A DNA stretch of 64,000 nucleotides from an uncultured Verrucomicrobiae bacterium (GTDB taxonomy: Bacteria; Verrucomicrobiota; Verrucomicrobiia; Chthoniobacterales; UBA10450): assembly GCA_963726745.1 (NCBI GenBank), contig CAVSDR010000003.1, positions 480,001-544,000 on the forward strand, in the 5' to 3' direction. Position numbers: made by a program. Positions within the stretch are counted from its first letter, which is position 1. Each line of letters starts with the position of its first letter. Positions 18,001-21,000 of this stretch are shown piece after piece.

Positions 18001-21000
18001 AAAACACTCGTTAGGCGCGGCGCGTAAACGCCGATCAACTGCCGCGCCGGGCGCGCCGGATTCAGCAGCGGGCCGAGCAAATTGAAAATCGTGCGCGTGC
18101 CCGCGCGGGCGAGCTGCGCGCGCATTTCCGCAAGCGCGCGGAAAGCCGGGTGGTAATGCCGCGCAAAGAGGAAGCCGACGCCGATCTCCCGGAGGCTGCG
18201 TCGCAATTCCTCCGGCTCCCACTGCAGCCGGATGCCGAGCGCCTCGAGCACATCCGCGCTCCCGCACGCGGAGGTGACGCTGCGATTGCCGTGCTTGACC
18301 ACGCAGGCGCCGCCCGCCGCGAGGATGAACGTGATCGTGGTCGAGACGTTGAAGAAATCGAGCCCGGAGCCGCCGGTCCCGCAGACGTCGAGCATCGGCC
18401 CCGGCAGATCTTGCTGTCTAATTCCGGGATCGATCGCGCGATCGATCAATTGCTCGACGAAGCCGGCGATCTCCTCCGCGCTTTCGCCTTTCGCGTGCAG
18501 CGCCGTCAGGAAGGCCGCCTTTTGCTCGGCCGGCGTGGTCTCGGAAAGGAGGCGCGCGACCGCGAGCGCAATTTCGCCCGCGTCCAGGTCGGTGCCGCCC
18601 TGGAGCTTTTCCGTGAGGGTCTTCACGCAGCTTGCGCGGACATGCGCGAAAGCCATTCGCGATAAATCAGCGGCGAGATTTCCGAGGGCTTGATCTCGCT
18701 CCGGCCACCCCAGAAAACGTTCGTGTAGCTCACCGGAATGCCGCAGGCCGCGAGGTGCTGGTCGATCGCGCGCTTATGCTCGAGGAGCAGCTCTTTGTCG
18801 GTCCCGTGCGCCACCGCCATGATGTTCACGTGGCGGAATTCCGCGCCGGCTTCGCGCCAATAGCAATGCGTCAGGATGTGGTGCCGCCCGACTTCGCCGC
18901 CCGCCTCCACTTCGCGACCCGCCGGCACCGCCCAATGGAAGAGCGCGTTGAAGCGGGTCACGCGCACGCCCGTGCCCGAAGGCTTCACGTGCTCGAGGAA
19001 AGTGGAGAAACGGCCGATGACTTTGCGCTCGTTGAGCGACTCCGCGATCCGGCAAAATTCCTCCAGCGACACGCCTGCTTCCGCCGCCCGCGCGCTCCAG
19101 GGTGACGGCTGAATTTCCTCCGGGGCGAACTCGCGCTTCAAGGCCAGGAGCACTTCCCATTCGCGGTCGCTCACCTCAGCCACATGCACCGGCGCCATCG
19201 TCGCGGGCGCGTCCGCTTTGCTCCCGGGCTCGATCGTTTTCCGCCGCACATGCCCGACGCCGAGGGTGAAAATTCCCTTCGCCGGCATCAGGCGAAAGTG
19301 ATCCGCACCGACATGCTGCGCGAGGATTTCGCCATGGCGCTGGAGCGAATAGCCATGCGGCACTTTCACCGTCGTCCAGAGTTTGTAATCGGAGCCGGCA
19401 GTGACCGCATCGGTCGAACGCAGGACCACGTGCCCGGAGAATGGGTCCTCCTGGAACATGTAATCGAAAGCGCTGTCTAATTTCTCCGGCGGCACCTTCC
19501 AGGCGACGAGCGCGCCATCGGCCAGGTTGGTCGCGAGCAAAGTCTGGCGCACCCGGCGGATCGTCCCCGCGCGCAACATCGCCGCGATCCGCGCGATCAC
19601 CGTGGCCTCATCCACCCCGGAGCGCGCGGCGATTTCCGCGAAGGGCTCGCGCACGAACCCGGCGATTTTGTCCTCCGAGATGGCGAGGATTTTTTCGTTT
19701 ACGGGGTCGTTGTGTTCCACGGGCAGCATCGCGCTTTAATAAGGCGGTCGCGCGGGCCAATGTCCACTGTGAGTGCGGACCTGAAACTGATCACCTTCGA
19801 CGCGGCGGGCACCTTGATCGAGCTGACCGAGAGCGTCGGCTGGCACTATGCGCACGTCGGGCGGCGGCTCGGCCTGCAGCTGGACGCAGCGGCGCTCGAG
19901 GCTGCCTTCGGCCGCGTCTGGAAGGAAATGCCCGCGCGGCCGGCGACCGGCGAACCGCGCGAAGACGACGACAAAGAATGGTGGCGTGTGCTGGTCGACA
20001 GGATCTTCGACCAGGTGGCGCCGGCCACGCGCGACCTCGACCGCGACAACTTCTTCGAGATCGCCTACGAGCACTTTGCCGAGGCTGGCGTCTGGCGGCT
20101 TTTCCCGGAAACGCTCGAGGTGCTGGAGGCATTGCATCGCCGTTACGACCTGGTGGTGATCTCGAATTTCGACGGCCGCCTGCGGATGGTCTTCGAGCAT
20201 CTCGGGATCTCCCGCTTCTTCAAAGCGCTGGCTATTTCCAGCGAGATCGGCGCGGACAAGCCCGACCCGCTGATCTTCCAACGCGCCCTCGCGCTGGGCG
20301 GCGGGGCGCAGCCTAACGAGGCGTTGCACGTGGGCGACGATCCCCGGCGCGACTGGGCCGCCGCCCGCGCCGCCGGGCTGCAGGTCTTCGAGCTCGAGCG
20401 CCCGCGAAACACCCTGCGCGAGCTCGTGGCCGCTTGCGCCGGCAAATGATGTAGACTAAACCAAACCTCGCGCCGCTTTCCCGGCGCTGAGCGGGTTGGT
20501 AGCTCAATGGTAGAGCAGCGCCCTTTTAAGGCGTTGGTTGTGGGTTCGAGTCCCACCCGACCCACTTCCGCCTACGGCTTTGCCCGCACGATCGTGACCG
20601 GCGTGCCGCGGCGAATGAGCAATTGCAGCTCGGCCAGGTCAGCCGTGAGCAAGGCGATCCCGCGCGGCGGGATCTCTGGATTGCGCGAAGCTTCCTCGGG
20701 GCGCTCGGCTAATTCCACCGTCTCCGGCGCGACGCTCGCGTCCTCATCGATGCCATAGAGGATGTAACCGCCGCGGCCGAGATGGATCCGCGGGTCGGCC
20801 GTCGCTTTCTCCTGCTCGGCATCGGAGGAGACGCGGCCGCCCTCTTTCCAGAAGGTGGTCGCGGTGACCTTGGTTACGACCAGCGCCTGGCGCACGCGCG
20901 GGAGGAGGTGGACGTCGACCACCGGGTATTCCTTGAAGAAGCCGTCGCCGTGATGCACGACTAACCGCTCGTTAGGCAAATCGAGTGTGAGGGTAAAATC

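Follow-up and report, generated by a model that had tools for sequence, protein, structure and literature searches.

The window, a stretch of 64,000 nucleotides from the genome of an uncultured Chthoniobacterales bacterium (G000; 3.41 Mb in seven contigs, 94.73% complete), carries a gene for a predicted fused AhbA-like/AhbB-like protein of the NirDL type, P0001 (Table 1). The Pfam models NirdL-like_HTH (45.8 bits) and AsnC_trans_reg2 (65.2 bits, two stretches) match this protein, and its best solved match in the PDB is the fused NirDL-like protein 4ch7 (E 3e-14, residues 12-315). Both the Pfam matches and the 4ch7 alignment reveal two AsnC/Lrp-like halves, as in sirohaem decarboxylases; in this enzyme type, each half consists of an HTH and a ligand-binding domain, and the halves share one pseudo-symmetric cleft. 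The NCBIfam models of AhbA and AhbB, which were made for separate subunits, score 59.1 bits (cut-off 140; residues 25-158) and 89.4 bits (cut-off 125; residues 206-325), respectively. The cut-off of the sister AhbC model is strict, so that the control AhbC of Haloferax also falls under it.

The HXYXR motif is complete in the AhbB-like half (H288-C-Y290-W-R292), and the AhbA-like half has Val instead of Tyr, with His and Arg retained (H100-V-V102-L-R104). All five His, Tyr and Arg residues of the two motifs, as well as Val102, are invariant in 67 of 67 full-length relatives of P0001. In the characterized enzymes, His98, Tyr100 and Arg102 of AhbB are catalytic, whereas His115 of AhbA binds iron and Arg119 a propionate (PMC4145669). 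The gene product is probably the sirohaem decarboxylase of a haem pathway that runs through sirohaem. The initial annotation had called a fused AhbA/AhbB-like reading frame with scores under the curated cut-offs and without conserved neighbours, and the same NCBIfam figures, the 4ch7 match and the invariant motif bear this out. Among 80 loci with 8-kb flanks, no gene cluster around the fused gene was common to Chthoniobacterales and other phyla beyond local synteny. In the relative G033 (see below), the gene lies among those for citrate synthase, SucC/SucD, CCA-adding enzyme, NAD kinase, TlyA, MqnC and a type III secretion protein, and no conserved neighbour was found around it or around the ChdC gene.

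Table 1. Predicted haem synthesis genes, candidate genes and protein features discussed in the text. Positions of the fused gene count along the window; C2, C3 and C6 are contigs of G000.
Feature	Location	Strand	Remarks
Fused AhbA-like/AhbB-like (NirDL-type) sirohaem decarboxylase, predicted (P0001)	18623..19729	-	ATG start, 368 aa
P0001, AhbA-like half	residues ~25-158		H100-x-V102-x-R104
P0001, AhbB-like half	residues ~206-325		H288-x-Y290-x-R292
ChdC	C6:950355-951176	-	PF06778 166 bits at C6:950400-951065; NF008913 266.7 bits, cut-off 253
CbiX	C6:978417-979196	-	confirmed directly
DR2241/Fer4_23 gene	C6:977295-977897	-	confirmed directly
Amidohydrolase (candidate, step 4)	C6:976100-977287		395 aa
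Aldo-keto reductase (candidate)	C6:979284-980315		G033 counterpart at 328501-329562
CobA-HemD fusion	C6:389771-391276		similarity to Pfam-annotated G033 gene
HemA	C6:392250-393260		similarity to Pfam-annotated G033 gene
HemB	C6:912836-913789		similarity to Pfam-annotated G033 gene
HemL-like	C2:144726-145994		similarity to Pfam-annotated G033 gene
rSAM-X	C3:788021-789088		radical SAM of no assigned family, G000

The partner genes of the fused gene are encoded elsewhere in the genome, not in the window. HemA, HemB, the CobA-HemD fusion, the HemL-like gene and CbiX were located via the Pfam-annotated genes of G033. Together with the DR2241/Fer4_23 gene, these recover the upstream set listed in the initial annotation except for HemC, for which only a partial match to the G033 gene was obtained (47% over 136 residues). 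A single ChdC was found in G000; it passes the NCBIfam equivalog NF008913, the peroxide-dependent coprohaem decarboxylase. Profile searches of G000 matched neither URO-D nor Ferrochelatase at E<=0.01. The AhbC and AhbD models found as best matches only MoaA, rSAM-X, ArsS and HpnH, with 13-63 bits: for AhbC, the best was MoaA with 48 bits, and nothing was detected at E<=1e-20; for AhbD, MoaA reached 63 bits and rSAM-X 53 bits against a cut-off of 500. The same AhbC search detects AhbC in five genomes of the order, in Haloferax and in Methanosarcina. The earlier claims that G000 encodes ChdC and lacks UroD, ferrochelatase, AhbC and AhbD thus stand.

Within the order, represented by 41 genomes including G000, the fused gene was found in 36 genomes and ChdC in the same 36; both were missed in G008, G025, G032, G036 and G040. 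Given this co-occurrence, the gene pattern is not an assembly gap of one draft. The genomes are not independent, and the absence of both genes counts as about three lineage-level cases (f2, f9 and f13) plus one 70%-complete genome. A clear UroD was found in three of the 41 genomes, but not in any of 24 additional members of the genus; one of the three, G028, carries it together with the fused gene and ChdC, so that UroD loss does not invariably accompany the fused gene. True AhbC (397-501 bits, full length) is represented in five genomes (G027, G031, G035, G038 and G039), all among the 36 with the fused gene, and in four of these five a second AhbC-like radical SAM gene adjoins it. Because these five genomes pair the same fused gene with true AhbC, the fused gene is tied to the Ahb pathway, and the order is mixed. 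At E<=1e-20, no AhbC was detected in G000, in 23-24 other genomes of the genus or in the seven other families sampled in the order. The AhbC-less layout proposed initially accordingly holds for G000 and its genus, and does not extend to the five AhbC-bearing members of the order.

One relative, G033, has a reduced, closed genome of 915,884 bp (0.916 Mb) in one contig. It retains HemA, HemB, HemC, CobA-HemD, the HemL-like gene, CbiX, ChdC, CtaA, CtaB, COX1 and COX2, along with a fused gene 67% identical to that of G000; neither UroD nor AhbC was found. Its six radical SAM genes encode LipA, MqnE, MqnC, HemW, MiaB and a KamA-family protein, none of the AhbC type. Haem-copper oxidase genes are present in both G033 and G000, and by gene content both organisms look aerobic. 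The G033 open reading frames common to G000 were compared with G032, of which 1.77 of 2.60 Mb (68%) was covered, and those matched there were subtracted. Reading frames shorter than 115 aa, longer than 700 aa, less than 35% identical or crossing the ends of sequence pieces were left out, as were three blocks presumed to be the ATP-synthase, cell-division and ribosomal clusters. As many as 231 reading frames were left, because only this part of G032 was compared; by Pfam, these are mostly housekeeping genes, and the few family-less ones look by eye like glycosyltransferase/GlgA fragments or spurious reading frames.

One possible reading of these data is that the route is incomplete, with haem or a late precursor taken up and the fused gene serving sirohaem turnover, regulation or another product. 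Two route steps have no assigned enzyme (see below), and the AsnC/Lrp fold is common to transcription factors (PMC4145669). However, the fused gene is 65-88% identical across the order, keeps its catalytic residues and occurs in exactly the same genomes as ChdC; G033 retains it with ChdC, CbiX, the tetrapyrrole genes up to CobA-HemD and the haem-a synthesis genes. Furthermore, NirJ, as required for a haem d1 route, was not found in G000, where its model gave 51 bits on both rSAM-X and MoaA against a cut-off of 515. We therefore regard this reading as highly improbable.

A phylum-level sample of 151 genomes at least 90% complete extends the pattern beyond the order. The fused gene is present in 25 of these genomes, 16 with and 9 without AhbC. 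ChdC was detected in all four AhbC-less genomes tested (G087, G170, G078 and G161) and is absent from the one AhbC-bearing genome tested (G102). In a natural fusion protein of 646 aa, P0005, an AhbAB-like part with 63% identity to P0001 is linked to a Chlor_dismutase domain, which scores 197 bits and shares only 27% identity with the ChdC of G000. Two other kinds of fusion protein, TrpD-AhbAB and CCA-enzyme-AhbAB, were discarded as most likely merged calls of neighbouring genes.

From these gene sets, we infer the following route. The CobA-HemD fusion, a gene arrangement also reported for Desulfovibrio, would convert hydroxymethylbilane to uroporphyrinogen III and directly on to precorrin-2 (step 1). 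Precorrin-2 would be oxidised, and CbiX, with the DR2241/Fe-S partner, would insert iron to yield sirohaem (step 2); the fused AhbAB-like protein would remove the C12 and C18 acetate carboxyls, giving 12,18-didecarboxysirohaem (step 3); an enzyme other than AhbC would remove the C2 and C7 acetates to yield coprohaem (step 4); and peroxide-dependent ChdC would produce haem b, from which CtaB and CtaA would make haem o and haem a (step 5). The predicted genes for steps 1, 3 and 5, as well as CbiX and the DR2241/Fe-S partner for the iron insertion of step 2, are present, and their distribution is linked. The route has two holes, because neither the step 4 enzyme nor the precorrin-2 dehydrogenase has been assigned, and since no known enzyme for the step between the fused decarboxylase and ChdC is encoded, one haem synthesis enzyme is still to be found. 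G000 and many of its relatives thus appear to make haem from sirohaem via the fused decarboxylase and ChdC, and step 4 presumably falls either to an oxygen-tolerant enzyme from a different family or to one of the pathway enzymes acting in a second capacity.

Among the closest known systems is that of Haloferax volcanii, in which AhbA/B and AhbC are followed by ChdC/PitA in air or by AhbD without air (PMC5746218, PMC8305020). The likeness extends to the sirohaem intermediate, the two-domain AhbA/B-type decarboxylases and ChdC as the last enzyme, and the ChdC of G000 is 36-44% identical to haloarchaeal ChdC-ABM proteins. In contrast to Haloferax, which has AhbC (HVO_1121) and AhbD, G000 yielded neither; its decarboxylase is one fused protein, and its ChdC lacks the ABM domain. 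That ChdC can take over from AhbD after Ahb-type early steps has therefore already been described (PMC5746218, PMC8305020), and only the lack of AhbC is new. The hybrid-pathway reading of the initial annotation is supported by the predicted gene content, through the 36 of 41 co-occurrence, the rarity of UroD (3 of 41) and AhbC (5 of 41) and the closed G033 genome; its novelty is narrowed by the Haloferax precedent. The canonical Ahb pathway of Desulfovibrio and Methanosarcina shares the intermediates up to didecarboxysirohaem and the HXYXR decarboxylase (PMC4145669, PMC13564367) but differs from the lineage studied here, with its haem-copper oxidase genes and peroxide-dependent last step. NirDL of Hydrogenobacter thermophilus (PDB 4ch7/4czc), an enzyme of haem d1 synthesis, has the same fused two-half architecture as P0001, whereas in G000 no NirJ-type enzyme was found and the partner is ChdC. 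Finally, the coproporphyrin pathway of Firmicutes and Actinobacteria (UroD, CgoX, CpfC and ChdC) likewise has coprohaem as the last intermediate and ChdC as the last enzyme (PMC10991733); unlike in that pathway, UroD and ferrochelatase were not found in G000, and coprohaem would come from sirohaem.

Several candidates for step 4 were weighed. The first is the amidohydrolase encoded next to the DR2241/Fer4_23 gene (Table 1), which, together with this iron-sulfur protein encoded just upstream, might replace AhbC. Of the order's genomes, 32 yielded both genes, and in every one of them the DR2241-like gene immediately precedes the amidohydrolase gene on the same strand, with gaps from 0 (abutting matches) to ~110 bp, and ~840 bp in G037; this order of genes is kept in the reduced genomes G033 and G152, and in G000 the pair follows cbiX. 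A metagenome scan with the amidohydrolase returned four loci, all from the same order, and DR2241 lies upstream in the two that have an upstream flank. The amidohydrolase is present in 35 of the 41 genomes, being missed in the five without the fused gene and ChdC and in AhbC-bearing G027. In the phylum sample, it is confined to eight genomes, each of which also has the fused gene; the 25 genomes with the fused gene comprise 16 with AhbC only, 8 with the amidohydrolase only and 1 with neither, and the amidohydrolase is in none of the 126 others. It scores below every curated equivalog (best 140.9 bits, cut-off 540) and has no close solved relative, and G033 and G152 lack any PNP_UDP_1 protein (MqnB/MTAN family) that could use the product of an aminofutalosine deaminase.

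However, the amidohydrolase tracks the futalosine (menaquinone) pathway equally well. The marker of this pathway, PF02621, was missed in G025, G032, G036 and G040 as well as in genomes of f20, f24, f19 and f17 (G102, G126, G120, G161, G063, G084 and G041), and is present in f22 (G170 and G078). The second-best NCBIfam match of the amidohydrolase is the aminofutalosine deaminase family (119.8 bits, cut-off 320), and inspection of the sequence by eye gives an HxH, HxxE, His and Asp pattern, which we take to be that of deaminases of the amidohydrolase superfamily. Moreover, G161 carries the fused gene and ChdC without AhbC, the amidohydrolase or PF02621; in f22, the DR2241-like gene does not adjoin the amidohydrolase; and four genomes of the order carry AhbC and the amidohydrolase together. 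A role of the amidohydrolase in step 4 is thus rather improbable.

An equally doubtful candidate is the aldo-keto reductase (AKR), which could act either in acetate removal or as the precorrin-2 dehydrogenase. Its orthologue is retained in the 0.916-Mb genome of G033 (61.6% identity), and G032, a UroD user, yielded only a 31-34% identical paralogue in the 68% of the genome covered. The gene divergently adjoins cbiX in G000 and lies 4 kb from the fused decarboxylase gene in G033, and its product is below every curated equivalog (best 82 bits, cut-off 550). Against this, the AKR gene does not adjoin cbiX in G037, none of 80 loci from other genomes has any AKR gene within 8 kb of the fused gene, and G000 encodes several AKR paralogues. 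Among long AKR homologues, no fusion with AhbAB or ChdC was found; PF00248 is the only domain recorded on them, one carries the first ~80 residues of a flavin amine-oxidase fold only, and they look like products of over-extended N-termini. The ESM Atlas search with the AKR returned only AKR clusters, from Verrucomicrobiota, Gemmatimonadota and Chloroflexota.

Alternatively, no extra enzyme may be needed, if removal of the C2 and C7 acetates were a further activity of ChdC or, with lower likelihood, of the fused decarboxylase. ChdC performs the same step as AhbD, and rings A and B are where AhbC as well as AhbD act (PMC10114771); by chemical argument, ChdC, which uses peroxide on these rings, might reach the C2 and C7 acetates that they bear. 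No pathway-specific genes other than those for ChdC and the fused protein are common to all AhbC-less genomes tested, the lack of a conserved neighbour in the 80 loci and in G033 fits a route of this kind, and P0005 joins exactly the AhbAB-like and ChdC-type functions. Nevertheless, the ChdC of G000 is ordinary by sequence, passing the standard equivalog model, haloarchaea retain AhbC beside ChdC (PMC8305020), and so do the five AhbC-bearing genomes of the order, beside the same ChdC and fused gene. We consider a dual role of ChdC unlikely.

A radical SAM protein of another family might also perform the AhbC step, namely, the HemN-related HemW or the KamA-family protein, both retained in G033. 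HemW of G033 scores 262.7 bits (cut-off 205.4), and has a 51% identical counterpart in G000; HemW binds haem, belongs to the radical SAM proteins and is a relative of the coproporphyrinogen dehydrogenase CgdH (PMC10114771). However, HemW is described as a chaperone for haem across bacteria (PMC10114771), so that finding it here is not specific evidence, and a radical SAM enzyme sits poorly with the aerobic look that the haem-copper oxidase genes give to G033 and G000; this explanation is very unlikely. The family-less rSAM-X of G000 was rejected as a divergent AhbC: its orthologues were found in only two other genomes of the 41 (G011 and G013) and none outside the genus, in which paralogues of ~33% identity occur.

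Taken together, we estimate a probability of roughly 55% that widespread aerobes use a radical-SAM-free sirohaem route, including abundant soil Chthoniobacterales, reduced-genome members of the order, a second family within the class and possibly also Thermoanaerobaculia and Chloroflexota, with oxygen-tolerant removal of the C2 and C7 acetates by a new enzyme (the AKR, or the amidohydrolase with its DR2241 Fe-S partner) or by a second activity of ChdC. The step 4 activity would then match AhbC as its aerobic equivalent, and the series HemF/HemN, ChdC/AhbD and AcsF/BchE would be complete. A large group of aerobes would lack the known enzyme for one haem step, an open question that is now testable: a handful of candidates is at hand, and the 0.916-Mb genome of G033 must hold the answer. 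An oxygen-tolerant substitute for AhbC, which itself has reportedly been assayed in cell extracts only (PMC10114771), would help engineered haem production.

Haem synthesis is held to be solved, with three pathways (PMC13564367), and the occurrence of ChdC in diderm phyla has been taken to indicate the coproporphyrin-dependent pathway (PMC10991733). For some of these phyla, the pattern described here points to a different interpretation, in which ChdC need not mean that pathway. No description of an AhbC-less haem route through AhbAB and ChdC was found in the literature on Ahb/ChdC haem synthesis, Verrucomicrobia, Xiphinematobacter and Udaeobacter, supplements aside. Going by the names on the records, the lineage includes 'Candidatus Udaeobacter'-type soil bacteria, and one relative, Chthoniobacter flavus, is in culture. 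The nematode endosymbiont Xiphinematobacter is reported to lack hemE, hemD, hemY and hemH, and the sequenced, free-living C. flavus to lack hemD, hemY and hemH, absences left unexplained in that report (PMC4607532). In a look-up of sequencing runs, no RNA run containing the sequence was listed, and three soil DNA runs, all from one study, contain 0.06-0.10 of its words.

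The product of the fused AhbA/AhbB-like gene, P0001, consists, according to Pfam, of one NirD/L-type HTH domain and two AsnC-like ligand-binding stretches. The NCBIfam models of AhbA and AhbB match residues 25-158 and 206-325, respectively, with scores (59.1 and 89.4 bits) below the curated cut-offs (140 and 125), as the initial annotation had stated. The closest solved structure is that of a fused NirDL-like protein (4ch7; residues 12-315, E 3e-14), followed by the separate AhbA/AhbB chains (4czd/4un1). Palmer et al. define the sirohaem decarboxylase family by the HXYXR motif, with His98, Tyr100 and Arg102 of AhbB being catalytic, and His115 and Arg119 of AhbA serving as the iron ligand and in propionate binding, respectively (PMC4145669). 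The AhbB-like half of P0001 contains H288-C-Y290-W-R292 and the AhbA-like half contains H100-V-V102-L-R104, that is, one fixed Tyr-to-Val change, in the iron-holding half; the His, Tyr, Val and Arg positions of the motif are invariant among 67 aligned full-length relatives. The features required of a sirohaem decarboxylase are thus present in P0001, apart from the Tyr-to-Val change. Sequence comparison supports its assignment as the predicted sirohaem decarboxylase of a route that would lead from sirohaem to coprohaem to haem and end in the peroxide-dependent coprohaem decarboxylase, ChdC.

Six-frame searches of the genome (3.41 Mb in 7 contigs, 94.73% complete; the window is C3:480001-544000) detected neither URO-D nor Ferrochelatase at E<=0.01; the positive controls yielded URO-D in 10 and Ferrochelatase in 9 of 14 reference genomes. 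The single ChdC scores 266.7 bits on the NCBIfam equivalog model of hydrogen-peroxide-dependent haem synthase, above the cut-off of 253. Neither AhbC nor AhbD was found with the respective models at E<=10, the sole matches being MoaA and ArsS (331 and 429.5 bits on their own models), a putative HpnH gene, judged by eye from the translated sequence, and an unassigned radical SAM gene, rSAM-X (44-53 bits on the AhbC and AhbD models). The genome searches thus bear out the combination that the initial annotation had pointed out, namely, the fused gene and ChdC with UroD, ferrochelatase, AhbC and AhbD missing. We rejected rSAM-X as the missing enzyme because it is sporadic: within the 41-genome sample of the order, orthologues are confined to 2 other genomes; its paralogues (~33% identical) occur in most of the genus. 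An MqnC-like gene on the smallest contig is split, which suggests either a frameshift or an error of assembly.

Features of the window and of other parts of the same genome discussed in the text
Feature	Location	Strand	Remarks
663-aa ORF	window 12626-14614	+	5'-3' exonuclease domains on residues 361-625 only
Second Amidohydro_1 protein, 457 aa	window 14793-16163	+	imidazolonepropionase-like composite domain; 2.5 kb from decarboxylase gene
TrpD-type anthranilate phosphoribosyltransferase	window 17580-18656	-	overlaps 3' end of decarboxylase gene by 34 bp
Fused AhbA/AhbB-like ORF	window 18623-19729	-	ATG start, 368 residues
HAD-family hydrolase	window 19712-20446	+	divergent from decarboxylase gene
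Radical SAM, DNA-repair family rSAM_link_UDG	window 27226-28533	-	'putative DNA modification/repair radical SAM protein', 579.7 bits
259-aa ORF	window 28546-29325	-	directly upstream of rSAM_link_UDG gene
MqnC-like radical SAM	C1:23071-23960		matches in two frames, open frames 173 and 267 aa
rSAM-X, unassigned radical SAM	C3:788021-789088 (L003:1297-2349)		Cys-rich C-terminus; best NCBIfam matches <=69 bits
ChdC	C6:950400-951065		single copy
Amidohydrolase, 395 aa	C6:976100-977287		candidate for the missing step
Aldo-keto reductase	C6:979284-980315		divergent from cbiX; candidate

The sample of the order comprised 41 genomes: this one, 24 others of its genus and 16 from 15 other families, with two unpublished genomes (G001 and G008) included in all counts. 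The fused gene, at full length and 65-88% identity, and ChdC are present in the same 36 genomes, and both were missed in G008 (70% complete), G025, G032, G036 and G040. Full-length UroD (359-463 bits) was detected only in G028, G032 and G036, along with partial matches of 30-82 bits in G035 and G038; the 24 other members of the genus gave no match. Five genomes (G027, G031, G035, G038 and G039) encode a full-length AhbC (397-501 bits; AhbC model at E<=1e-20), which in four of them adjoins a second AhbC-like radical SAM gene. The presence of the same fused decarboxylase beside the classical AhbC in some genomes ties the fused gene to the Ahb pathway. The model search detected no AhbC in 31 of the 36 genomes with the fused gene. 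Given the pattern across the 41 genomes, the gap in the haem genes is not an assembly gap.

A reduced relative, G033 (one contig of 915,884 bp, 47.7% GC), encodes, in a row, glutamyl-tRNA reductase, porphobilinogen deaminase and a 504-aa TP_methylase+HEM4 fusion, and also keeps ALAD, a class-III aminotransferase (HemL-like), a double-domain CbiX, the fused decarboxylase (67% identity) and ChdC (53% identity). Model searches found neither UroD nor AhbC in this genome, and its six radical SAM genes encode LipA, MqnE, MqnC, HemW, MiaB and a KamA-family protein. Its haem users include CtaA, CtaB, COX1, COX2 and c-type cytochromes. It is unlikely that seven tetrapyrrole genes would be retained in so small a genome for a broken route. 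Brown et al. reported the absence of hemE, hemD, hemY and hemH from the nematode endosymbiont Xiphinematobacter, left unexplained in that study; hemD, hemY and hemH are also not annotated in Chthoniobacter flavus (PMC4607532).

At least 580 stretches encode a relative of the fused gene (580 of the 600 candidate stretches among those listed). Judging by record titles, the related loci among those listed belong to Chthoniobacterales, 'Candidatus Udaeobacter' and other Verrucomicrobiota; loci listed at 66-71% identity include Thermoanaerobaculia/Acidobacteria MAGs, two 'Dehalococcoidia' contigs and one 'Bacteroidetes' contig. In the 646-aa database protein P0005, a Chlor_dismutase domain (197 bits) is joined to an AhbAB-like part that shares 63% identity with P0001; the domain is only 27% identical to the ChdC of our genome. 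Of 151 genomes drawn evenly from the phylum, each at least 90% complete, 25 carry the fused gene. AhbC (E<=1e-60) accompanies it in 16 of these, all 15 of family f20 and G027, and was missed at the same threshold in the other 9, from families f1, f10, f22 and f24. ChdC was present in all four AhbC-less genomes tested (G087, G170, G078 and G161) and absent from G102, the sole f20 genome tested.

The use of ChdC in place of AhbD has already been described for Haloferax, which employs AhbD under anaerobic and ChdC under aerobic conditions; chdC is found in nearly all haloarchaea, and ahbD also in two thirds (PMC8305020; PMC5746218). However, Haloferax has AhbC (PMC8305020; PMC5746218), whereas most genomes of this order lack it. 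According to a review, the sirohaem route requires AhbA/B, AhbC and AhbD (PMC13564367). AhbC activity is described as shown in cell extracts only, the fate of the removed fragment being unknown (PMC10114771), and ChdC in diderm phyla has been taken as the coproporphyrin pathway (PMC10991733). We found no description of an AhbAB and ChdC route without AhbC in the full-text literature, supplements and the main distribution review being outside the scope of that search. Genomic evidence, that is, the 41-genome pattern and G033, agrees with the earlier proposal that haem is made from sirohaem via coprohaem and ChdC; of the novelty then claimed, the AhbC gap with its missing enzyme stands, but the replacement of AhbD by ChdC does not. 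Gene content supports a predicted route with ChdC as its last enzyme and, in most of the order, without AhbC. Two of its steps are without an enzyme: precorrin-2 oxidation and the removal of the C2 and C7 acetates of didecarboxysirohaem. The finding is a variant of a known pathway with a defined missing enzyme, for which the list of candidates is short.

No neighbour of the fused gene is conserved across phyla. Subtraction of the UroD-using G032, 68% of which was compared, from the ORFs shared by our genome and G033 left 231 ORFs; Pfam annotation of 140+123+18 ORFs returned mostly housekeeping genes. The 395-aa amidohydrolase, which closes the run of cbiX, a DR2241+Fer4_23 gene and the amidohydrolase itself, is a rather improbable candidate for the removal of the acetates. 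In each of the 32 genomes of the order in which both genes were detected, as well as in G152, a DR2241-like gene is the immediate upstream neighbour of the amidohydrolase gene, but this pairing is not conserved in f22. Over the 41 genomes, the amidohydrolase is distributed like the fused gene with the sole exception of G027, a genome with AhbC; in the phylum sample, it is present in 8 of the 25 genomes that carry the fused gene and in no others, and alternates there with AhbC (of the 25, 16 have AhbC alone, 8 the amidohydrolase alone and 1 has neither). However, the distribution of the futalosine pathway of menaquinone synthesis is nearly identical to this, and the second-best family of the amidohydrolase is that of aminofutalosine deaminases. 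PF02621, the marker of this pathway, was missed in G021, G025, G032, G036 and G040 and in all seven tested genomes of f20, f24, f19 and f17, and is present in both tested f22 genomes. The two distributions part in G021, where the fused gene, ChdC and the amidohydrolase are present without PF02621, and in G008 (unpublished, 70% complete), where PF02621 is present with none of these three. A further small point in favour of the amidohydrolase is that the 0.9-Mb genomes G033 and G152 encode no PNP_UDP_1 protein, and so neither MqnB nor MTAN; G033 carries MqnA/D-type, MqnC, MqnE, UbiA, UbiD and UbiX-type genes, the nucleosidase step of its futalosine pathway thus being without an assigned gene. 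Against it, G161 (f24, 5.9 Mb) combines the fused decarboxylase and ChdC, yet lacks AhbC, the amidohydrolase and PF02621; it is the genome that tells most about the missing step.

Another candidate for a part in the missing chemistry is an aldo-keto reductase, which shares 61.6% identity with a gene located 4 kb from the fused decarboxylase in G033, with only a paralogue (31-34% identical) in the compared part of G032. It reaches no curated equivalog, is not beside cbiX in G037 and was not found within 8 kb of the fused gene in 80 other loci. Further options are a second activity of ChdC, or HemW, and, among the proteins common to our genome and G033, three metallo-beta-lactamase-fold proteins, a CN-hydrolase and an NAD-epimerase-like protein.

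The Amidohydro_1 protein encoded in the window shares just 26.7% identity with the C6 amidohydrolase. Three database proteins of 733-740 aa (P0003, P0004 and P0006) contain TrpD domains joined to an AhbAB-like part; these are probably merged gene calls, though the pairing recurs. A divergent upstream ORF cluster, taken to be the HAD-family hydrolase, recurs in 40 of the related loci. The first 360 residues of the 663-aa ORF have no family match, so that its start may be called too early.
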